Origin: Marsupella aquatica
Lineage: Eukaryota > Plantae > Marchantiophyta
Reading direction: 5' to 3'
Length of the DNA: 64,000 bases
Assembly: GCA_973895155.1 (NCBI GenBank)
Contig: OZ316891.1
Coordinates: 5,737,708-5,801,707, forward strand
The first letter of the stretch is position 1. Every line of letters starts with the position of its first letter. The notes beneath the pieces were generated by a model. It was not told the DNA's origin, ran no database searches, and worked only from the letters and a program-made list of their open reading frames with translations. Of this stretch, positions 22,036 to 46,226 are shown piece after piece. Both the position numbers and the translations under genes were made by a program.

Positions 22036-25000
22036 ATGGCGGCCGTGAGTGAAGGTGTCAACGCTAGCCAATCGGTCCTCGACTTTGTGTCACAGATGTA
22101 TGACCGGTTTACTGCATCAGACCGTTATAAGAGCGAAGCCGTGATCCTCAACGCAAAGCTTGATTCCTTGAAGCAGGACGATCGCATCCAGCTGTTACCT
22201 GAAAGCGGCATTACGAGGCAAACTTTGATGAAAGCCGAAACAGCACTGAAGACAGCGCGAGCACGATTAAACAGCTTGGAGGAACGCGTGGACAGCAGCC
22301 AGAGCTGTTTGCAATGTATCTGGTGGTTGTATGCGAAAGTGGCCTTGGCACTTTGCCCGTTGGAAAATGCATTGAAGAAGGTGGACGAAGACCTTGACAA
22401 TATCCCAAAATTACTCAAGGAGGAAAACGAATCCGAGGATGGAAGGCGAAAAGCAGACATGTCTACACACGTCCACGACAATAACAAGTATGTCCCGATA
22501 GAAGAGTCACAGAGGAAGGTCATAGAAGCAATTGAAGATAGTGACGGTCCTCCCCTGATACTGCTACATGGTGGAGTAGGTAAAGGCAAGTCAACCCTTG
22601 CTCGATATATGTGTAAGTGCTACGGAAAATCTGGCCAAAAGAGCAATGTGTTCGATCATGTGATTGTGGTCTCGTGTGGTAATAGTTCAATGTCTGATTC
22701 TGCTACTAAGCAATATGAAATTTTGGACAACTTTTCTGTCACTAGTTTGACAGACGAAAGAAGTTTGAAATACGAAAAGGCGGAATCTGGGAAGAACATT
22801 GACCCAAAGTCCAGAATCGAAGAAGCTCTGCAGAAGTATCTGCTTCACAAGAAGATTTTGATGGTCCTGGATGACGTTTCAGATCCGAGCTTTTTGAGTA
22901 AAATGTGGATGGCTGCCAGAGATGGGAAAGATGATAAAATTCTGATCACGTCCCAAAAGTCTAATTTATGTGACGCATTTCCGGGTGACTTTGTGCCGAT
23001 TCTGATGGCAAATCCGACCGGAGGGGAAGCCAGGAGAATTCTTGCATCTCTTGTGGGGCTGGAGAATAAATCAATTCCTCGTCATTTACTGGTCAGTACT
23101 ATTCGAGCACCTCCAATACAGTTTACTGTGAAATATATGCCGCACTAATTGTTTCCTTTGTTACATCCTTAGCACTAACATTGAACATGTATTCATATTT
23201 CTTCTTCTTGTGTAGGGAATAGCCAATAAGATGATTAAAGCAACGGATGGAAATCCATTAGCTTTGGGATGTTTGGCAACAGCCTTTTCTTTCGGCAAGG
23301 ATAAAAAAGGCAAGAATGAATGGCAGGATGCTTGGAAGGAATTATCTATGCAACTAGGAAATACTGAAACAAGTTTTGTGCTCGGGCAAAATGATGGGAT
23401 TGCCCCCAGTAGAAGCCTATGGGGTGCTATGAAGCTTTGTATTGATTCTCTGGAAACTGAGGATGCGAGACAGACTCTCTTGTTGACATATGCATGTAAA
23501 GGAGGATCGGTTCCTGAAGGGGTACTTCGAATTTTGTGTGCTGGCTTACAGATGTCAAGTACTATATTCAATAAGTCGAGAGATGAATTGCTAATGAGAG
23601 AATTGCTGAAGCATCCAGCTGATATGTTAACATCAAAGATGAATTTGGGCAAGGAACTGAATGATGAAGAGTTAGAGGCATCTCCAACATGGTCTCTACA
23701 GTCTTTAGTGAAGCTCTATATGCAATGGGATGTGGCTGGCAAAACAGAAATGACAGCTATGTTTCGGACATTGCTTGGTGATGACAAGTCAAGCATCACA
23801 TGCAAACAGGCGTACGCAACGGAAATAGTGGAGATAGAGACAGAACTAGTGGATAGTGACGACGAGACGAGAGTGAGAATCGCGCTCTGTGCTCTATACT
23901 TCGACCGCCACCACACTGATCAAGTTGTGACTGGTGCTGCGACTGAGGCTTGCAGAATGTCCAAAATAGACTTTGATGATAGTATAAATGATTTAAGGAG
24001 AAAAGCCATTGAGCCATTGGTGTGGTTGCTGGATAAACGTGAAGAACAGTTAGGCGAGGAATTGGGTGAGGAATTTGACGAGGAACTGGGAGAGGGAGCA
24101 GGAGAGGAATCAGATGAGGAAGTGCGTGAAGAATGGACGGAAGAAGATAAATGTCGTGTGAGGAAGGTATTTCACCTGTCATCCTGGAATACGTGCTTTC
24201 CTCTAAACCTTTCGCTCTACGTCACAGTTAATGCACGTCCACTATTTCTCTTGAATATGAATGGAACATTTCCAATTGAAAAGCATCATTTGAGTAATTC
24301 AACTACTTAGGCATTCACAGAATCTCTTAGTTTCACATGTTCGAAACGCGCGACAGAGTGAGTCAAAGTTCAATAGTTATTCTTCAGCTATTCATCGCAA
24401 ATAGGCGAGTCCTTTGAAAATCAATATAATTGACTGTTCTCTGTAAAACGTATATATGACTTTTTCCTGTGAATTCATTCTTGCAAGATCATGGACGTGT
24501 TGTTGATACCAAAAATATTAGTCTTGGAAGTCTATTTAACAAACCAGCAAAAGTTAGGTTTTCTGTATGTGGTATTTTCAAAAATCTAAGTGTAGTTTCT
24601 TAAAAGCTTGATTCTAAAGTTGTTGAAGAGCCATGTGTCTTCGGAAAAGCCTTCGGCGTTGTTTCTATTTGATGTGAATGTTTTTGACGATTCAAACAAT
24701 CAAATTGCCTGAAGTTTAGTTTTTGTTACTGAATATAAATTTTTGGACATTGTGAACAACTCCCTTTGCAGGTTATTCTTCAGTACATATGCAAGCGCCA
24801 GCTAGATGCCAAGAACGTCTCTTACCTCTTGAAGTTGGTTGCTTGTCCTTCTGCACAGTTGGCCACTCTCCAGGCTCTCAGTCACATGGCATCCATAGAA
24901 GAAACTCCTCTGCTCAATGAAAACACAATCAGCTTTTTGCCAGCTGTAGTCGACCTTCTGAATTTGAAGGAGGGTTTCCACACGAGTGTCCAGGAGGCGG

Positions 25001-28000
25001 CCTCTGAAGCACTGTCAGATATTTGTTGGAAGACCGCGTATGACAAATCACCAATCCCTGTTGCAAATCTGTCAGGTATTCTGGAAGTGTTGATACAATC
25101 ACTTGCCGTTCCCAAGTCCGATGTATTTGCAGAAAATGCAGCCCATGCTTTAATGGGCTTAGCATTCTCTTGGGACGAGGCCATTCTACACCTAATTACA
25201 AATAAACAGGGCATACTAGCTAGTCTTGTGAATTGCTTGTATGAGCACTCCAAACCTCGTTTGCAATACAGGGCAGCGGGGGCTTTAGGAAATCTATCTA
25301 AATCAATAAATCAGTCTCTTAAGTTGAGAATTGTCAGTGAGGAGGGAGCACTGGTTGGCTTGGTGAATTGCTTGTCAAAGCATGACAAGGACAAGTTACA
25401 AGAAGCCGCAGCGCGCGCTTTGGCAAATCTGGCTGCTGCAAAAGATGAGTCTCTCAAGCTGAGAATCGCCACTGAGGAAGAGGCTCTGGTTGGCCTGGTG
25501 AATTGCTTGTCAAAGCATGACAAGCATGAGGTACAAGAACAAGCAGCACACGCTTTGGGAAATCTGGCTCGTACAGAAAATGAGTCTCTCAAGTTGAGAA
25601 TCGCCAATGAGGAGGGGGCTCTGGTTGGCTTGGTGAATTGCTTGTCAAAGCATGACAAGCATGAGGTACAAGAACAAGCAACACGCGCTTTGGGAAATCT
25701 GGCTCGTACAAAAGATGAGTCTCTCAAGTTGAGAATCGCCAGTGCCGAGGGGGCTTTGGTTACCTTGGTGAATTGCTTGTCAAAGCATGACAAGGACGAG
25801 TTACAAGAAGCCGCAGCAGGCGCTTTGGCAAATCTGGCTGCTGCAAAAGATGAGTCTCTCCAGTTGAGAATTGCCACTGAGGAGGGGGCTCTGGTTGGCC
25901 TAGTGAATTGCTTGTCAAAGCATGACAAGGACAAGTTACAAGAAGCCGCAGCATGCGCTCTGGCAAATCTGGCTGCTGCAAAAGATGAGTCTCTCAAGTT
26001 GAGAATCGTCAGTGAGGAGGGGGCTTTGGTTGGCCTGGTGAATTGCTTGTCAAAGCATGAAAATGACCAGTTACAAGAAGCCGCAGCATGCGCTTTGGCA
26101 AATCTGGCTGCTGCAAAAGATGAGTCTCTCAAGTTGAGAATCGCCAGTGAGGAGGGGGCTCTGGTTGGCCTGGTGAATTGCTTGTCAAAGCATGACAAGC
26201 ATGAGGTACAAGAACAAGCAGCACGCGCTTTGGCAAATCTGGCTCGTACAAAAGATGAGTCTCTCAAGTTGAGAATCGCTAGTGAAGAGGGAGCTCTGGT
26301 TGGCCTAGTGAATTGCTTCTCAAAGCATGACAAGCATGAGATACAAGAACAAGCAGCACGCGCTTTGGGAAATCTGGCTCGTACAAAAGATGAGTCTCTC
26401 AAGTTGAGAATCGCCAATGCGGAGGGGGCTTTGGTTGCCCTGGTGAATTGCTTGTCAAAGCATGACAAAGACAAGTTACAAGAAGCCGCAGCAGGCGCTT
26501 TGGCAAATCTGGCTGCTGCAAAAGATGAGTCTCTCAAGTTGAGAATCGCCAGTGAGGAGGGGGCTCTGATTGGCTTGGTGAATTGCTTGTCAAAGCATGA
26601 CAAGGAACAGTTACAAGCAGCCGCAACAGGCGCTTTGGCAAATCTGGCTGCTGCAAAAGATGAGTCTCTCCAATTGAGAATCGCCAATGAGGAGGGGGCT
26701 CTGGTTGGCCTGGTGAATTGCTTGTCAAAGCATGACAAGGACCAGTTACAAGCAGCCGCAGCATGCACTTTGGCAAATCTGGCTGCTGCAAAGGATGAGT
26801 CTCTCCAATTGAGAATCACCAGTGAGGAGGGGGCTCTGGTTGGCCTGGTGAATTGCTTGTCAAAGCATGACAAAGACCAGTTACAAGAAGCCGCAGCATG
26901 CGCTTTGGCAAATCTGACTGCTGCAAAAGATGAGTCTCTCAAGTTGAGAATCGCCAGTGAGGAGGGGGCTCTGGTTGGCCTGGTGAATTGCTTCTCAAAG
27001 CATGACAAGGACAACTTACAAGAAGCCGCCGGAGGCGCTTTGGCAAATCTGGCTGCTGCAAAAGATGAGTCTCTCAAGTTGAGAATTGCCAGTGAGGAGG
27101 GGGCTTTGGTTGGCCTAGTGAATTGTTTGTCACAATTTGAGAACCATGTTGTACAGACAGAGGCAGCAAGAATGGCGGCAATACTAACTTCTACTCCAGA
27201 TGTGAGGGGGGTCCTGAGAGGAGCAAAAGGCCTTGTGCAGGGACTTACAAGCTTGTTGGGAGATGACATGCATCCGGATACTCGACGTTTTGCAGTAAGA
27301 GCGTTGCTTAATATGGACCCGACAATAGCTAAGGAACTGGGCTTGCTGTCTGCACAGCTCGATGTGTCAACTTTAAGGTACGGGAACTTACCACTGATGT
27401 CAACACAAATTTCGATTCCATCAAGAATTTACAAAGAAAGAAGGAAAGAAGGAAGTTGATCATCGAGCAAAGTGGCCATTGTTAACAAAGAATCCTGTAG
27501 TAAGTAATGAAGGTAACCAAGATCAGTAGATACACATATGCCAAGATTCAACTTGATGACCATGAGAATAGGTAATCATATCGTAAACACTGTACTGTAG
27601 TACCATTCTGGTTAAAGAGGTGGTTTGAAAAGCTCTGTTGAATAGAGAATGTGTAGTGTGATGTTTTGAGGGTTAAAGTCGTCGTAGAGTTCAGAATTTC
27701 CAGAATCTTGAAGACATTATTTTCCTCATTTGCGTATAATTTGGCCTCGCTCAGGTAGCAGGCTTGAAGTAGGTCCTAGACATACATTCCAGGGAAAACG
27801 GAAGTTGCAAGTTGTCAGCCATTTGTGGCGAGCCATTGGACCTTAGGCTGGGACAGATTATTATAATTTCAAAATCCAACAGGTCTCCGGTATATTTGGA
27901 GAGCCTAGCTGCATTCTAACATAGATATTCATGAAATAAGATAGCAGCTAAATTAAATTGGAAAAGTCAGTGAACTGGTTTAAATCCCAGTGCACCTTAT

Positions 28001-28422
28001 CTGTTGAAGCGTAGCTAAGTGTGTAGTGCACCTTATTTGTTGTTTGTGATGGCAGTCTAAGAATTTGTGTAAAAGCAAAACTTGAAGACTTTCAAGGGGC
28101 ACTGGACGATGCCAATGAGGCAGTAAAAAGGAGCGACACGGTGACAGATGGCATGAAGGCGTTTATCTTGCAGGAGAGGGGTGTCTTGAAGCGAATGATG
28201 GGAGATCTGGAGGGCGCCCTCATAGATTTGGATGAAGGATTAAACCTAAAAGCCAATGACTACGAGAGGCTGAAGCACCGTGGTTATGTCAAATTCTTGC
28301 TAAATGACGTGGAAGGAGCTCGCGCAGATGCAGAATGGGCTCTATCAATCGAGTCCTCAAGGGATGACTCGGATACCTACTTGGGAGGAACATCCGCAGA
28401 ATACTTGGGGTACAAGCTGTAA
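22036..28422 (+). CDS. NLR-like STAND protein, ~1659 aa: helical N-terminus + NB-ARC-like NTPase + armadillo-repeat array + C-terminal TPRs (exons 22036-23091, 23216-24166, 24772-27377, 28056-28422)
   Basis: Four ORFs join in frame through GT-AG introns of phase 0, 0 and 2. Motifs: Walker A GGVGKGKST, Walker B ILMVLDDV, RNBS-B-like KILITSQ, GLPL-like GNPLAL, MHD-position WSLQSLV. ARM consensus (GALVGLVNCL...LQEAAA.ALANLA) occurs 15 times. TPR consensus in the last exon: (LRICVKAKLEDFQGALDDANEAV; ERGVLKRMMGDLEGALIDLDEGL; HRGYVKFLLNDVEGARADAEWAL). Confidence 0.88.
25228..27130 (+). repeat. Coding tandem array, 135-bp unit (45-aa ARM repeat), ~14 periods
   Basis: GTGAATTG recurs every 135 bp from 25228 to 27118 (15 occurrences). 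The internal 13 units differ by only a few substitutions and have no indels. Confidence 0.97.
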
Positions 28423-29981: not shown

Positions 29982-30240
29982 GCAACACCTAGAACCTGGG
30001 GCAAGAGAAAAACACTTGTAGAGTTGGAGAAAAGCAACACCTAGAACCTGGGGCAAGAGAAAAACACTTGCAGAGTTGGAGAAAAGCAACACCTAGAACC
30101 TGGGGCAAGAGAAAAAAACTTGTAGAGTTGGAGAAAAGCAACACCTAGAACCTGGGGCAAGAGAAAAAAACTTGTAGAGTTGGAGAAAAGCAACACCTAG
30201 AACCTGGGGCAAGAGAAAAACACTTGAAGAGTTGGAGAAA
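29982..30240. repeat. 52-bp tandem repeat x5
   Basis: GCAACACCTAGAACCTGGGGCAAGAGAAAAACACTTGTAGAGTTGGAGAAAA starts at 29982, 30034, 30086, 30138 and 30190, with no spacers. Confidence 0.95.
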
Positions 30241-35130: not shown

Positions 35131-36506
35131 TCTGTTGAACTTGAGTTGGGATGCTAGACTTGCGAGATCTAGGTCCTGAGGGGTTACTTACCGAGACGCT
35201 TGGTTGCTTGTGCAGACAGTGCGGACCGTTGAGTAGCAATCGTGTTGGAGAGCAAGTGCGGCTTCGTATGGGAGGGGTCGCAAGCGGTGCAAGGGGCACT
35301 AGGTTGCTTGCTCAAGGTATTCCGTGGAAGCGTTTGGGCACTAGGGGCACTTAGGCGTGGGTGCTGGGATTGGTAAGGGCGCTTGGTGGCGAAGTCCGTC
35401 ACTTCCCCCCTTGAGGTGTGTCTTCCCTCTGGGAATGTTTTATCGGTGCCACCCCCTTAGTTTGGATCTTTCCCTTTGGGATGACTTCTTGGATTTTTAC
35501 ATTCATCCTTTCTTTGGTCCTCTTGAATCCCTGGCCCTTTTCAGTCTGCCTCAATTTATGCATTGTGTAGCTTCTCAGTGACAGGTTTCATTGCTGTTGG
35601 AGTTTTCACGCTTTTGGCTTTTTATTTTGTTTATTTTGGGGAATGGATGAAAAATAATTTCCAAACAAGTACAATGCAGTGCATGCAGTGCAGTGAGAAC
35701 AAGGGAGTCCATCAACCACATCGATGAAAAACTCCACATTCATGCACAAATCCACTAAAGGGCCAAGACTGTTGGTTCCAGGGCCACTACCTAAACTCCT
35801 CTTTGTAACCCTCCTATTTGGTTTACTCCGAGCTTTACAAGGTTTATCAATTAGTATGGCTTTAGTTCCTTTGCCATTGTAGGGAACTTCGGGGCACTTG
35901 GCTCTTCCTGGGGTTTTCCTTTTAATACTTTTTCCCTCTGCTGGGTCTGCGGCCTCTACTTCATTTCTTCTGGGTTTGCCTTTTGTTCTTTGGTCCTCTT
36001 GATTTTTAGTATTCATCCTTTCTTTGGTCCTCTGGTGTATATAAATAACAGTGCCATATCCTGTTTTCTGGATTGTGGTTTTTGCCCCCTTTCCCCTGAA
36101 TTAATTAAAATTCAAAAATGATTGATTAGTACTGTACCATGGAAGCTTTGCTAACAGCAACTCAGTAACATACTGGCGCTCTTGCAACCTTGCAGTGATG
36201 GCCTAGAACTCCACTACGGTTTCTTATTAGGGTTTAAGCAGCCCTAACGATATCGAGGGTTTTGGGTCGCGAGAGTCCGAAAGAGGAACTGCAAACCTCG
36301 ATCAATCTCTTTACTCATTGTGGACCTTTCTCGAATTTCTATTGCATAGATTTCGAAATTGCAAAGGTCGAGCAGACCGATTCGGCGGAGGGATTTTGGC
36401 AATGCGAGAAGGAGAGGCATGGGGAATTCACGGGATTAATTTCTCGAGGAGAAAATGAGAACAGAGGTTTGACGAGAGAGCTTCGAGAAATTGAGTCGTC
36501 GTCGGG

Positions 36507-39500
36507 ATGGCGAAATCCGTAGCCACCCCTGTGGCTAAGCGGAAACTACGGTCAGCAAGTCCTCCTTCTCCCGCCCCAGCTCCCGTGCCCCCGCCCGATT
36601 CCGATTCCGAAGTGTCTGATGACCTTCTCCTGGACGATGAAGTATCGGACGAGGAATTGTCTGAGAACGAAATTTCATCTGGATCGGATTTGGCGGAGGG
36701 AGATGAACCCGATGGAGAAGATGCAGACAGCTCGAGTGCCGAGGAGGATGGGGAATCTGGTGAAGAGGAGGAAGGTGATTCTGATGACGAGGAATATGAT
36801 CCGGAAGAGGATATTGCGAAGGCTGTGAGAGAATTTGTAGGTCTAGAGTCCGATTCAGATGGCGAAGATGAGGAGGAGGAAGGAGAAGACGAGAAGGAGC
36901 CTGCGCTGAATTCCGAAGGAGGAGATGTGGCAGACTCTGATGGAGGTGACGAAGCCAACGGGGGAGGTGGAGAACATGCTGATGTTGCAAGGGAAATGGA
37001 GGAAATCCAAGCCGTAGAGGAAAGTGATAGTGAGGATGATGGTGAATTGGCACCTCGGAACACAATTGGAGAGGTTCCCCTAGTGTGGTACAAGGATGAG
37101 AAACACATTGGGTATGATATTGAAGGAAAGAAAATTACAAAGAAAGAGAAGAAAGATCAACTGGAGGCATTTTTGGCTCGGTCAGACAATTCCAAGGACT
37201 GGTGGGTTTTACTGAATTGCCCGATTCCTAGTTGTGCTTGGTCTTCGTTACCTTTCGGTCTACATATTCTGATTATACACATGCGTAACTTGCTGCATTA
37301 TTGGTAGAATGGACACAACAAATTTGAAGGTTGATGCGTAATGTGAATTTTCTCTCCCGTCTTAACACAGATAGAAGTGTTTAATCTTGGTTCGCTCTGG
37401 CAGGCGGAAGGTGTTTGATGAGTACAATGATGAGGAAATTGAGTTGACGAAAGACGAAATTGATATGATTCGAAGACTTCGTCAAGGAAGGACTCCACAC
37501 AAAGAAGTTAATCCATACGAGGTGTGTGTCGCTTGGAAACGCAGTTATTTCTCCTGGGAATGCTGAGCAACTGTCGTGGCGGTGGCCGTGGTAAATTTAA
37601 GGGAATTCGGAGCTTGAGGCCTTTACTACCCTCGAGGTCTCCTTAGCCTTCCCGTTCATCAGTTTGGGGTTATCCACCTACTTAAGAATTTACTCATGTA
37701 ATTTTCAGGTCTTCTTGGTTTAATTTTTGGTTGTTGCACGTTTCAGCCTTACGTTGATTGGTTCGAGTATGAAGATAAAGGCCACCCTCTATCCAGTGCA
37801 CCTGAGCCGAAAAGGAGGTTTATTCCCTCAAAATGGGAAGCAAAGAAGGTGTTTCTCACCTCCCCTAGTCTTTGCACATACTATTTTATGTACTGTTACC
37901 TCCTCTCAGCGTGATTTTGGAAAAGTAAGTTGAATCGGGATGACTATATACATTCAGAGATATACGCCAGTGCACAAGTCAGCTGTGCTTAGGCGACTAA
38001 CGAAAATTATGAACGACACCTTTACATATGAAGAGTCAGAGTTGGTATGGAATAACAGAGTGCGAATAAACTTTTTGGTATTACTTTCTGCTGGTCAGGT
38101 TGTAAAATTGGTGCGAGCCATCCGTAAAGGTTGGATATCTCTAGACAAACCGAAGGAGAAACCAAAATATTATTTATTGTGGGGAGATGATCTTCAAGCC
38201 ACAGAGAGGACTGCCAATGGTCTTGCTTATATCCCTGCTCCGAAACCCACGTTACCTGGTAACCCCCTCGATAAAAACGTTTTGTTGCAGTTCTGCGTTT
38301 GAACACTAGGTGGCAATGTGTTTGATGGAGAAGGAGCGGGCCCGTTCTCTTAGAAAACATTGTCGTTTCGGTTGAGCATTGCTATTTGACGAATGTCAAT
38401 GGCTAGATGGAATTTAGATTGTGTGCAACTCATAAATGTGGCTATGGATGGTTTCACAAGTTAAAATATGCCTCTTGGCTATAAGGACAGGGATGCGTCG
38501 AACTCACATTTTGATGACAGGTCATGAGGAGTCGTACAACCCACCAGAGGAGTACATTCCCACTCAGGAGGAAGTCAATGCTTATCAGCTTATGTACGAA
38601 GAAGATAGGCCTAAGTTTATTCCCAGGAAGTGAGTATTCTTCAAAATGGGAATCTCGTCCACTCTTCTGTGGATACAAGGGTTTACAGGAATTTCTTTAT
38701 GGTACTTGGCATTAATCATTAGGACGTTCTGTCGGTAAAGTATATCGGTATACTACGATGATCTGGGTAGCTATTGCCTACAACGTACATTCTTTAATTG
38801 GGGCCAGATTTATGCCTCAAATAATTGTCTCAAATATATGTTTGGTTCTAGTTTATGTATGCTGGTTGTATTGCATCAGGTACGATGCACTTCGGAAAGT
38901 TCCTTCTTACCCAGAGTATATCAAAGAGCAGTTCGAACGATGTTTGGACCTGTACTTGTGTCCACGATCACGGAAGAAGAGGGTGAGAATAGTAACCACC
39001 TCTACGTTTGTTGGTAATTCTAATGTTTCATGGTTTTGACAACGTTCGTCTATGTTTCTTCCGTTTTGTGGACTCTGATGCTATGCATTTGGAGCAGATA
39101 AACATTGATCCAGAGTCCCTCATTCCCAAACTTCCGAACCCAAGAGATCTACAGCCGTTTCCAACAACTTTCTTCTTGGAGTATCGGGGCCACACTGGAG
39201 CAGTGAATAGCATTGCTACTTCTCCGTGTGGAGAGTGGTTGGCTTCAGGTACCTATGGGTTGTGTGTCATAGTTGCTGATGTCTACTTTCATTTCTCTAA
39301 GTTGTGAGGACCTAGATGTATGCAATATGCACCAGATTTCTAAGGAAATAGCCCAGGGCTGTCCTTGAATTATGAGTTCTCTTTACTCAAGGAAAATTTC
39401 TCCTGTGATTCCATTACAGTCCAGCTGATCCCTGGTTTTTTGTTGAAGGTTCACACGATGGAAATGTACGTCTCTGGGAAGTACAAACTGGGAGGTGCCG

Positions 39501-41788
39501 AAAAATTTGGAAATTTGGTGGAGTCATCCAGCAAATTGCGTGGAACCCTAACCCTCAGCTTAGCATAATTGCAGTAGCAGTGTAAGATTTCTAAAATTTG
39601 GAATACCTTTAACTTTGTCGTTCCCGTTTGCAGCAATGCTTTCTTGGATTTCTCTAGCTCTCCAACACGTCGTTCAATAAATGTGGACCATCTTCACCAT
39701 TGCAGGGAAAACAATGTTGTTCTTGTAAATACAGAAGTGGGCTTAGAAGAGGCAGAAGCTACGCTGTCATCTCTTCTTACTTCGACTCAAAAGGCGTCAG
39801 CGAAAGAGAATGGTAAGAATTGCCCTCAAAAAGATAGTATTTTCTGTATCAAATGATGCCGATTCAATTCAATATCAGCTTTACTTCAAGGAATTCTATC
39901 AGCTTCATTTACATCGATTGGATCAAGAAGTCTCTGATTGGGTAGTAATTAATTTTTTGCAGGCACAGAAGACACTCCCCTGGCTACATGGACCCAGCAT
40001 GAAGAACTCAAAGGCTTGAAACTTGGCCACAAGCATGTAAGTATCTGTCATCCTCTCTAAAGTAATAGTTTTATATACAAGAAAGTTTCTCTCTTGGTCA
40101 CTATTTGCAGGCCAAAGCGCAGGCCAAAGCGACTTTTCAAAGTACCCCGTAAAGTATGGAATGCCGAGAGTGGTTGCAGCATTCTCCTCAACAATACAAG
40201 CACGCAGCAATAATCCCTTTGCAAGTGGTGTTCCGCCTCTTTCCTAGTTCGAATGTTGTTGGTCACTTACCTTTCAATAACCATTTTTGGCGATATGTAG
40301 GTGGTGCATTCTGTGGCATGGCATTACAAGGGCGACTATCTTGTCACAGTGAATCCAGATGATATCCTTCTCAATCACTTTCATGTTCACGTACAAGTGG
40401 ACCTGTTTGTTGCTTGAAGCTTTAAGAAAGTTTGTTTTAGTTGACTTTTTGAAATGGCTAAGGTCATGGAAAGCATAGTGCGTGTCGAACTTATTTTTTA
40501 TAGGCCAGCACTTGTACAAAGAGATCTTGCATCATTTAATTTCCTTGACTGTGAGTGGTGCACGTAATACAAAGGCAGTTCTGGTGCATCAGCTTTCGAA
40601 GCAGCAGACACAAAACCCATTTCGTAAGCATCATGGCCGTGTTGTGCAAGTTCTGTTTCACCCTTCCAGGCCCTTCATGTTTGTCGCTACCAAGATGCAT
40701 GTACGGGTCTACAATCTGGTGAAACAACAACTGTCAAAGAAGTTGATGACAGGGCTGGATGCAATCTCATCTATAGCCATACATTCTGGAGGTACGATGT
40801 TATTGACCTTTACTTTCATAACGTGCTGTGCAGGTGCTATTTATCGCTGTGAAATACTTTCGATGACTTGGCATGTAATACTATCACTGTCGTAGCTTTG
40901 CCGTAAATCAGATTGTTTAAGTCTTACTGTCTTCTATCCTTACTCCTTCCTTCATCCGTCTCTACCAATTGTCTGGAGCTGACAAGTGGACATGCTGTGT
41001 AAGAGAAATATTAACCTCTACTTGAGCTCTCGTCCAGGTGACAATTTGATCGTTGGCAGCAGGGATGCTAAGCTTTGCTGGTTTGATATGGATTTATCAA
41101 CAAAGCCTTATAAATCTATCAAGTGAGTTTTTCTCCTTGTCCTGCATACATTATTATGCTGCTGTTTAGGTGCTCTTTTATTATCTGGCTGGTTACGTTA
41201 CCGTCATTTCTAGAAGTTTCTGTTCTATTGGAATTTTCATGATTGGCGTCTACTTTGCAGTCATGGTTCCAACCAGGAGCGGCCAATTTGGGTTTCGTTT
41301 ACTGACCTTGTGTGGTAACCGTTTGTTGCAGAAATCATAGCCAAGACATAAGGGCTGTGGCTTACCACAAAACATATCCGTTGTTTGCAACCTGCTCTGA
41401 GGATAAAAGTGCGCATGTTTTTCACGGAATGGTATATTCAGATCTCCTGCAAAACCCCCTAATTGTACCAGTCAAAGTGCTGCAAGGGCATCAAGGAGGT
41501 ACGTATCTTCACTGTACAATCAACTATAAGGGCTGGCGGATTATTATGCCTTAGGTATATCAGGTGTATCCTTGAAGTGTGGTTTTGCCTGTTCCATTCA
41601 GGCAAATGCTCCACCTGTGTTGTTTTGTGATGCTAAGTATTATGGTTGCGAAGGACCTTCTGCAAACTTGCTCATTTGTTTTATCTGTTGGCAATATTGC
41701 AGCTGTTTTCGATTGCATTTTCCATCCAAAGCAACCATGGTTATTCACAGCAGGGGCCGACGCTGTTGTCAAGTTGTATTGTAACTAG
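36507..41788 (+). CDS. BOP1: Ribosome biogenesis protein BOP1/ERB1 (acidic N-terminus, BOP1NT domain, WD40 repeats); 15 exons: 36507-37201, 37404-37521, 37747-37848, 38099-38258, 38521-38629, 38880-38982, 39098-39248, 39449-39581, 39706-39812, 39963-40036, 40301-40361, 40564-40791, 41038-41122, 41332-41498, 41703-41788
   Basis: Diagnostic motifs: [124 protein letters not shown]. Splice sites keep the frame throughout. Confidence 0.97.
40362..40563 (+). other. U12-type (minor spliceosome) AT-AC intron in BOP1
   Basis: 5' site ATATCCTT at 40362, branch site TTCCTTGAC at 40541-40549, terminal CAC at 40563. Splicing yields the in-frame [18 protein letters not shown]. Confidence 0.9.
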
Positions 41789-44260: not shown

Positions 44261-44370
44261 GGCTAAAAGTTACGGCCCTAACCCCGCTCTGGTCCAGGCA
44301 ACCCCCCTGGTCCAGGCAACCCCCTCTTGGTTCATCGATGCGCGGCAACTCTAATCGAGTCTAAATTGAC

Positions 44371-44826
44371 CATAACTTTTGGCCCCTAAGTCCGTTGGCC
44401 AAAAAATATGTGGTCCCATGATCGGGCTCATGTGGGGCTTCTCAGGCCCCTATGGTGATCCGTTGGAAAAATAATTCATTTTTCCATGATCGGCAACGGG
44501 CCCAAACTACAAGCATGCGGCTTGAGTCGGCCATAACTTTTGGCCCCTGGGTCCGTTGATCAAGAAATATGCGACCCCATGATCGGGCTCATGTGGGGCT
44601 TCTTGGGCCCCTATGGTGATCCATTGAAAAAATAGTTCATTTTTCCATGATCGGGAACGGGCCCAAACTACAAGCATGCGGCTTGAGTCGGCCATAACTT
44701 TTGGCCCCTGGGTCCGTTGACCGAGAAATATACGGTCCCATGATCGGGCTCATATAGGGCTTCTTGGGCCCCTATGGTGATCCGTCAGAAAAATAGTTCA
44801 TATTTCTGTGATCAGCAATGGGCCCA
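44371..44826. repeat. 161-bp tandem repeat x~2.8
   Basis: CATAACTTTTGGCCCCT starts at 44371, 44532 and 44693. Confidence 0.92.
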
Positions 44827-46226
44827 ATAAAGTTAATTGGAATGCGCTTTTTTCAAGTCTTGTCTTTGCTCTTACTAGCCTCCTCTTTGTTAGTCGCATC
44901 TTTAATGGTCATGATAGTAGCAAATCTAAGAGGGACTCAACGCTGGAAATAGGCAACGCCGGAACAATTACAAGTAGATGAAAATTGTATTCGCAACTTG
45001 AAAACCCTCAGGTAAGCAACCATGGGGCATCCATTTTGAACAATTTCTTCCAAGCGAGGCTTTCTCCTCACATTCTGTCACCATCTCGAGTATACTGGTG
45101 ACTTCGATTCACTCAGAAGTAACTATAGTAGGGCTTTTCCACAACTTTTCTGGGAGTTTCCATAATACTTGAGTTAAACGTTTTGGGGGGTTCCCATAAT
45201 AATTGGGTTATGGGAGGTCTTTATCTTGGCGGTATCTTGTCAACTCCAAACTTTGAAACCCCTAGTGTAGACATTCAAGGTTTGCTGTCCCTGGGTCTAT
45301 TGTGCTGTTGTGGCCCATTTTGATTCCCGAAATCCCATTGATTTCACCAAACTCCCTTGATTTAATCAAACACCCAGCCCTAAGGTGAGATTGGAGGATT
45401 GATGGAGTGACAAGAACAACGGATTTCAGGTGACGATCATTCAAAATGCCACTCAGTAGAACTAGTTCATGACAAAGACATGGGTTGGACTCATAGACGG
45501 CTTGGCCCTGAGTCATACTGCGTCATGCCACTAAAGTCAAGTCGGTGAAAAGTGCAACATACAGCCACGAAAGTCGAAGGAGAGCAGAACTCTAATGTAC
45601 TCTAATTCAAAAGAATAGGAAGGAAGCAAAAACGACGACATTCAAACCAGAACGATCATCGGCCACTTGAAAAATCAGGTCGAGATGTCAATCCTAAGTT
45701 GACGAAGAACAACGGCCTTGTCCCAGAGCCACCATCAGAATGAGAACTCAGTGATAACGAACTGGAAGAGATAATGTATCTCCTTAATGTCATCCTAGAG
45801 AGCTGCTTTTCTTTCTGCAGCAATCAAGAAAATTGCCTCTTAATGTGGCATGATCACCAGAACCCCACATTCGGAGACTGGATCACTAATCTACAACTCT
45901 ACGACTGCAAGTGGACATGTTGTTCCGCTTCTAGACCCCAAGGCCTAACAGATGCGGTTCACTGACTCATCTATTTTTACAATCGTGAGACTTTCAAGAA
46001 GTGAATTTGGGTAGAGCAGGAGAGGTGGACTGCGCGCATTCACTCCTGCCCGAAGGATTACCCACAACCACAGATTTAGGTACCACTACACCAAGACCTG
46101 GGCACTCGTGCCCACTTGGCTCAAAGATAATTTTGCTTTCTCGTTTTTTGGGTTAAGCACCGCTTTTGAACTTGGTATCTGTTAATTGAAATGATTCCTA
46201 TGATACAACTTGACCCCTCCCAAGGG

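Follow-up and report, generated by a model that had tools for sequence, protein, structure and literature searches.

The liverwort Marsupella aquatica has a gene that appears to combine NB-ARC, the nucleotide-binding module of plant immune receptors, with armadillo (ARM) repeats and tetratricopeptide repeats (TPRs), and that carries no leucine-rich repeats (LRRs). It lies at 22036..28422 on the forward strand of the window, by which we mean the whole stretch of 64,000 nucleotides of contig OZ316891.1 that was analysed. The question is what kind of protein this is, and what its long and nearly uniform repeat array does. We believe, with a probability of roughly 0.6, that the gene encodes an ARM-sensor immune receptor of the liverwort NHAT family, belonging to the STAND proteins (signal transduction ATPases with numerous domains) and equipped with a four-helix death domain, and that variation in the groove of the ARM solenoid sets its specificity. 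The architecture by itself is no discovery; the homogenised array with its variable groove may be a new part, and is a specific lead that can be tested.

Gene structure and domain architecture

As the preliminary description of the locus had claimed, four exons join in frame. Together they make 4980 nt encoding 1659 amino acids (aa) and a stop, with the frame open throughout and all introns bounded by GT..AG.

22036..23091, + strand: exon 1 (aa 1-352), helical N-terminal domain, nucleotide-binding domain (NBD) of NB-ARC and start of HD1; NB-ARC profile match
22036..22437, + strand: N-terminal domain (aa 1-134), predicted to form a four-helix bundle of the coiled-coil (CC)/RPW8/MLKL type
22570..22596, + strand: Walker A, GGVGKGKST (aa 179-187)
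22855..22878, + strand: Walker B, ILMVLDDV (aa 274-281)
22936..22956, + strand: RNBS-B/sensor 1, KILITSQ (aa 301), Q replacing the usual R
23216..24166, + strand: exon 2 (aa 353-669), comprising the GLPL-like motif, a winged helix whose MHD is degenerate, the helical region of the family and an acidic insert
aa 364, + strand: GNPLAL, the GLPL-like motif, in exon 2
23696-23710, + strand: degenerate MHD, LQSLV (aa 513); LQS aligns with the MHD column of canonical nucleotide-binding leucine-rich repeat receptors (NLRs)
24772..27377, + strand: exon 3 (aa 670-1537), armadillo solenoid by Pfam Arm and predicted fold
25345..27099, + strand: 13 homogenised ARM units of 135 nt, with a DNA identity of 83-97% (mean 89%) and variation mainly at the predicted groove positions
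28056..28422, + strand: exon 4 (aa 1538-1659), with roughly three TPRs, the C-terminal tail of the family and, at 28420-28422, the stop codon

All five motifs that had been described are in their places, both Walker motifs are intact, and the Pfam NB-ARC profile matches exon 1 well above its cut-off of 23.5 (E 4.6e-14, 52.7 bits). No LRR family matches any of the four exons at E up to 1, and Pfam finds no TIR domain in them, the N-terminus being all-helical. The Pfam scan and the colinear relatives thus agree with the earlier view that NB-ARC, ARM and TPR belong to one intact gene without LRRs.

It is likely, from comparison with related sequences, that the exons form a single intact gene with conserved intron positions. 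All three junctions are spanned colinearly by the annotated Calypogeia fissa proteins P0001 and P0002 (aligned by eye, and junctions 1 and 2 also by alignment), and colinear, full-length relatives come from five liverwort species. When representative sequences were searched, intron 1 or 2 coincided within a few residues with the start or end of 36 of 49 short strong matches, as expected if the gene calls of the relatives run into shared introns. The splice model rests on these relatives, whose gene models are predictions too; four read runs of unrecorded kind have no joint at any of the three introns and behave as DNA. The repeat number is that of the window assembly, as short-read contigs break inside the array and none spans it. 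Its unique flanks match DNA contigs of run X1, possibly the window's own source, without differences. Summed read depth is higher over the array and the TPR exon, which suggests paralogues, and no copy number can be derived from it.

One minor contig of run X4 (depth 19 of 95) has a 4-nt insertion at position 22651 in exon 1; this is a broken allele or a paralogue in that sample. An in-frame insert in exon 2 (nt about 24038-24142, + strand), acidic, rich in purines and about 26 aa long, is missing from the four aligned relatives.

The armadillo solenoid and its groove

We are confident, from profiles and the modelled structure, that exon 3 encodes an ARM solenoid. Pfam Arm matches it in 14 stretches (E 2.3e-88), HEAT-like families match it as well, the repeat motif is present 15 times with a period of 45 aa, and Tandem Repeats Finder (TRF) gives 13.5 copies of 135 nt at 90%. 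The AlphaFold2 (AF2) model of this exon has a predicted local distance difference test score (pLDDT) of 90.6 and 19 long third helices, the degenerate ends included. Foldseek aligned it to the designed ARM protein 4rv1 with a TM(target) of 0.92 and a root-mean-square deviation (rmsd) of 2.1, and Vac8, importins and UNC-45 are among its best fold matches. This agrees with the about 15 ARM repeats, with no LRR, of the preliminary description. Antisense to the array there is a stop-free frame of 705 codons (25311-27428, - strand), which is probably a by-product of the repeat.

The 13 core units are of two interspersed types. Aligned with designed ARM proteins, position 24 of the unit falls on Trp33 and its invariant Asn on Asn37, and the most variable residue of the unit (R, H, G or C) corresponds to designed-ARM position 33. 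The peptide site of the designed proteins is formed by Glu30, Trp33 and the conserved Asn (PMC4756613). We defined the groove as seven ARM positions, 26, 29, 30, 33, 36, 40 and 41. The wider set of 26, 29, 36, 40 and 41 comes from ARM design work, and we take these positions to lie on the same helix face.

Variation at the groove was higher than at the other positions in 7 of 8 arrays, and in the same seven it was also higher than at the other polar positions (0.51 against 0.11 in the window, p 0.0003). Since the groove set was picked after the window array had been seen, the fair, out-of-sample test consists of the seven other arrays only; in six of these 7 related arrays the difference between groove and polar positions had a p of 0.03 or less. 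The pattern recurs in distant branches, P0042, P0052 and P0005.

Selection was estimated from one allele, between the window's own repeats. The nonsynonymous and synonymous differences per site (pN/pS) were 0.316/0.043 for the 7 groove codons and 0.059/0.154 for the other 38, and the array-wide pS, 0.136, is lower than the groove pN. Counted as minimal changes, there were 13.5 nonsynonymous and 0.5 synonymous ones in the groove as compared to 23 and 18 elsewhere (Fisher p 0.002). The low pN of the scaffold codons, below their pS, indicates that the array is under coding constraint.

The strongest of the alternatives, which we nevertheless find unlikely, is that the array has grown by slippage and plays no role in specificity, its groove being merely exposed and unconstrained, and that the protein is a helper, a guard or a dosage-sensitive regulator of cell death. 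Such a history would agree with the degenerate MHD and sensor 1, with a neutrality test of the window groove codons that is borderline (binomial p 0.015-0.09), and with the many family members, the Marchantia exemplar (self-identity 0.54) included, that do not have a homogenised array. It is harder to reconcile with the uniformity of the other polar positions of the same repeats, with a groove pN exceeding the array-wide pS, and with the repetition of the pattern in distant branches, all given above.

We measured self-identity at fixed offset and not by T-reks as in PMC4986451. At least 85% over 100 aa was found in 6 of 30 family rows and in none of 17 RLS1-like and NB-LRR controls, and the window array, with 0.90 at period 45, qualifies as fungal-type (at least 85% over at least 100 aa). 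The six homogenised rows differ in unit sequence and in period (45, 89, 91, 129 and 135), which points to repeated, independent homogenisation; the family with varying middle repeats that the preliminary description had in view does exist. Fungal NLRs have homogenised repeats with positively selected variable sites, and such repeats are rare (0.4%) among plant ankyrin (ANK), TPR-clan and WD repeats (PMC4986451). We found no report of homogenised ARM arrays in plant NB-ARC proteins in a literature search that left subscription journals mostly outside. A tentative extension, somewhat more doubtful than probable, would be that in NHAT receptors the ARM units are regenerated by concerted evolution with only the groove diversified, each unit reading a short piece of an extended target and the order of the units giving the specificity, and that the family thereby keeps a repertoire of the fungal style.

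The TPR cap

The protein had been described as having a hybrid sensor of ARM and TPR repeats. The ARM part of this claim fits the variable groove, while the TPR part is doubtful. Pfam TPR_9, TPR_1 and TPR_2 match exon 4 with E 7.5e-6 to 6.3e-5, all below the curated cut-offs. The cap is as conserved as NB-ARC, with 64% as against 63% identity to P0001 and 38% as against 30% to the Marchantia gene, and cap or tail is found in 14 of 30 long family rows (the window and 13 others). With its sequence conserved, and with many members lacking it, the cap probably does not act as the variable sensor; a conserved element for regulation or closing is the more likely role. A remnant of an extra TPR was searched for in introns 2 and 3 with 11 queries, which gave 0 matches there and three weak ones upstream (E 0.03-0.43).

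The NB-ARC module and a possible mechanism

The structure model of exon 1 is weak (pLDDT 52), and its NBD best matches plant NLRs; the predicted NBD aligns to NRC2 with Z 13.2 and rmsd 3.3 over 180 residues. In the liverwort clade the sensor-1 Arg is absent from 18 of 20 aligned rows and the MHD Asp from 19 of 20, and both are kept in four of four rows resembling rice RLS1. For the N-terminal domain, an Atlas search gave Rx_N, MLKL_N and RPW8 at 0.85 as a lead only, and the family profile aligns through the CC of NRC2/3/4.

In the mechanism that we propose, the ARM groove would bind an extended peptide from a pathogen protein or a modified host protein. Binding would release NB-ARC and allow it to form an oligomer; the nucleotide switch and the oligomer are here assumed by analogy with the STAND/NLR mechanism, and oligomerisation is established for STAND relatives (PMC10586772). 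The N-terminal helical bundle, presumably membrane-active, would then be the executioner that causes cell death. The pattern of variation suggests a scaffold kept uniform by unequal crossing-over and gene conversion, and a groove made diverse by selection. In that case the order and number of the repeats would set specificity.

Several points weigh against this reading. For this gene it rests on sequence and structure prediction. In the window protein the MHD motif has lost its Asp (LQS) and sensor 1 its Arg (TSQ), and with both replaced the canonical ADP/ATP switch may not apply. The resistosome of RPP1, a protein with an altered charge in its TT/SR motif, has ADP bound (PMC10586772), so that the window protein, too, might become active without the usual ATP contact. 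The model of the N-terminal domain is poor (all-helical with long helices, pLDDT about 45), Pfam gives nothing for it below E 0.07, and profile-profile comparison with RLS1-like and G10-type N-termini is weak (probability 13%). The groove set, besides being chosen with the window array in view, contains positions beyond 30, 33 and 37 that come from ARM design work. Among the other arrays P0001/P0002 and P0003/P0004 are close pairs, and P0003 has no groove excess (p 0.51). The differences between the repeats are dominated by the two repeat types, and the neutrality test is borderline, as mentioned. Finally, the cell-death report for NHAT, discussed below, rests on the legend of Extended Data Fig. 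6.

P0003 and P0004, which are close relatives of the window protein, have an altered Walker B (LDKL), alternating repeats of two types and no TPR cap. Judging from these motifs, they are possibly NTPase-impaired sensors.

If NHAT receptors do keep the fungal-style repertoire considered above, they would be programmable readers of peptides that occur in nature, linked to a switch for cell death and carrying a repeat code that can be read. If the groove sets specificity, they are plant receptors that evolve like the fungal het genes and unlike LRR receptors, and a natural counterpart of the designed armadillo peptide binders. The near-identical 45-aa units allow the code to be tested by simple repeat swaps and may be of use in disease-resistance receptors. 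NHAT is a named family on which hardly any work has been done, and the model liverwort Marchantia possesses a member.

Family and phylogeny

A profile of NB-ARC and the following helical region was searched against representative sequences and matched 681 of them with E values of 0.001 or lower; for 49 of these the E value was 1e-30 or lower. A word-based profile search brought in just one further sequence, an unrelated NB-LRR. Thirty of the 150 listed representatives were looked up, and the family members with a name were liverworts in 22 cases of 22 (Calypogeia, Marchantia paleacea, Riccia fluitans and R. sorocarpa). One representative cluster, P0159, contains M. polymorpha MARPO_0095s0062, annotated as MpNBS-LRR15; P0159 has NB-ARC, HEAT, Arm and TPR matches and no LRR match at E 0.001. 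Six Calypogeia fissa proteins of 1456-1551 aa, 39-55% identical to exon 1, carry NB-ARC and Arm. Among the 30 long family rows, 16 match the window ARM profile, which misses diverged arrays such as those of P0042 and P0051, 14 match the TPR cap and 11 match both. The names that UniRef assigns to members automatically, 'unc-45 homolog B' or 'Vacuolar protein 8', conceal the family.

In 3 of the 30 long rows a hydrolase motif stands before the P-loop in place of the helical N-terminus, a replacement that can be likened to the executor swaps of NLRs, and these rows fall on separate branches of a quick 77-row tree. An alpha/beta-hydrolase-like N-terminus was seen in P0002, P0006, P0052 and P0064, with P0002 retaining the tail of the helical domain; these sequences suggest recent domain swaps. 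Another subclade (P0069, P0074, P0075, P0077 and P0086, Riccia where named) has longer N-termini, which place the P-loop at about residue 310-350, and its C-termini match no Arm, TPR or LRR profile at E 1e-5.

A more careful tree was built from 43 NB-ARC regions (359 columns, rows chosen by hand), without TIR-NB-ARC-TPR proteins (TNPs), bryophyte Hyd/Kin-NLRs and algal rows, and rooted on P0129 and P0148, which are TIR_2 + NB-ARC + Apaf-1-like proteins. Of its labels for CC-type NLRs (CNL), TIR-type NLRs (TNL) and G10, some were checked by Pfam and the rest assigned by us. The window groups with the Marchantia gene in a clade of 21 rows, supported at 99/99 and present in 100% of 200 bootstrap trees; the 20 named rows of this clade are all liverworts. 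Its sister (99/97) is a CC-NB-ARM clade of 7 rows, ranging from Selaginella to Sorghum and supported at 100/100, which excludes the window; the 13 rows of canonical NLR type form a group of their own (100/98). The approximately unbiased (AU) test did not reject a grouping of the liverwort clade with the canonical rows (p-AU 0.31), which means that the sister relation is not secure. A single origin of NB-ARM for the liverwort and RLS1-like clades is plausible on the basis of this tree.

The relation to RLS1 brings up another alternative, that the protein is a non-immune STAND scaffold or regulator in senescence, organelle turnover or development. The first report on RLS1 connected it with the breakdown of chloroplasts in senescence (PMC10030324), and ARM and TPR are general interaction folds, as the top matches to Vac8, importins and UNC-45 illustrate. 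However, the RLS1-like proteins are conserved at about 1040 aa and are not homogenised, whereas the liverwort family is expanded and divergent, with swapped N-termini and a tail gained and lost, which is typical of immune receptors, and we regard a non-immune role as improbable. Still less probable is a receptor for self and non-self between liverwort individuals or symbionts, like Podospora het-d/het-e; the repeat pattern is that of the fungal NLRs with conserved, positively selected repeats (PMC4986451), but pathogen pressure fits it equally well. It is hardly credible that the joined protein is an artefact, be it several genes taken for one, a copy that is silent or an array wrongly assembled, for even if no contig spans the array and the homologous gene models are predictions too, the 4980-nt open frame with canonical splice sites, the colinear full-length relatives in five liverwort species with their conserved introns, the scaffold pN below pS and the flanks identical to X1 DNA contigs all speak against it.

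Surroundings of the gene

Within the window the gene is on its own. Elsewhere in the 64 kb, tblastn with 6 queries found neither a paralogue nor a hydrolase exon (0 matches outside the gene), and of 31 other open reading frames (ORFs) scanned, three have Pfam matches, all consistent with BOP1. These lie at 36495-40895 (+ strand), BOP1NT in two ORFs and WD40 in the third, and likely represent a BOP1 ribosome-biogenesis gene. TRF reported two more tandem arrays.

29982-30240: 52 bp x 5 (97%)
44370-44827: 161 bp x 2.8 (89%)

Comparison with known systems

The preliminary description took the architecture to be a non-canonical class and knew of no characterised protein with it. The novelty can no longer be maintained, as Mapoly0095s0062 of Marchantia polymorpha carries the same domains and is the named type NHAT, and NB-ARM proteins are on record in rice and Selaginella; the architecture is largely that of an already characterised family. 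By its sequence, the gene is a further member of the liverwort NHAT family and not a new class. Dong et al. 2025 sorted NBS proteins into 10 subclasses, and according to a figure legend NHAT, Mapoly0095s0062.1, is one of five types that kill Nicotiana benthamiana cells on overexpression (PMC12513842). The acronym would stand for NB-HEAT-ARM-TPR; one supplement of that paper contains no mention of NHAT, HEAT, armadillo or TPR. The exemplar shares with the window protein the helical N-terminus, NB-ARC of the same clade, HEAT/Arm and TPR without an LRR match, and a homologous TPR cap and tail (38%). It differs in that its NB-ARC is only 30% identical and belongs to another subclade, its repeats are diverged (0.54 as compared to 0.90), and it has one more TPR-like stretch ahead of the cap.

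Rice RLS1 is a CC-NB-ARC-ARM protein of 1040 aa, whose gain-of-function form RLS1-D causes death resembling the hypersensitive response (HR), and resistance (PMC10030324). CC-NB-ARMs have been called conserved in plants (PMC12512272), and this conserved clade is presumably the RLS1 family. ARM-type repeats have been noted with NB domains in Selaginella (PMC8559963, PMC7145615), and in reviews ARM and TPR figure as rare substitutes for LRRs (PMC10586772, PMC9825502); the main text of Chia et al. 2024 has no occurrence of ARM, armadillo or TPR (PMC11218826). The RLS1-like proteins resemble the window protein in their helical N-terminus, NB-ARC and ARM instead of LRR, and the profiles following the winged-helix domain match with a probability of 75%. 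Unlike it they are about 1040 aa long, conserved from Selaginella to grasses, keep the TTR and HD motifs, and lack the TPR cap and homogenised repeats (7 of 7 rows).

The TNPs, named as a separate cluster (PMC12512272), share with the window protein NB-ARC, C-terminal TPRs and the lack of LRRs, but the window protein has no TIR match and does have an ARM array. The canonical CC-NLRs (ZAR1, NRC2/3/4 and Sr35) are the best structural and profile matches of exon 1, from which the window protein is set apart by ARM in place of LRR, its altered MHD (LQS) and TTR (TSQ), and its separate clade. The fungal NLRs of HET-D/HET-E type are like the window family in being STAND proteins with homogenised repeats, variable sites on the binding face and N-terminal swaps that include hydrolases (PMC4986451). 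They use WD, ANK or TPR/HEAT repeats, mostly with NACHT, whereas the window protein is a plant protein with ARM and NB-ARC, and the analogy is one of mechanism.

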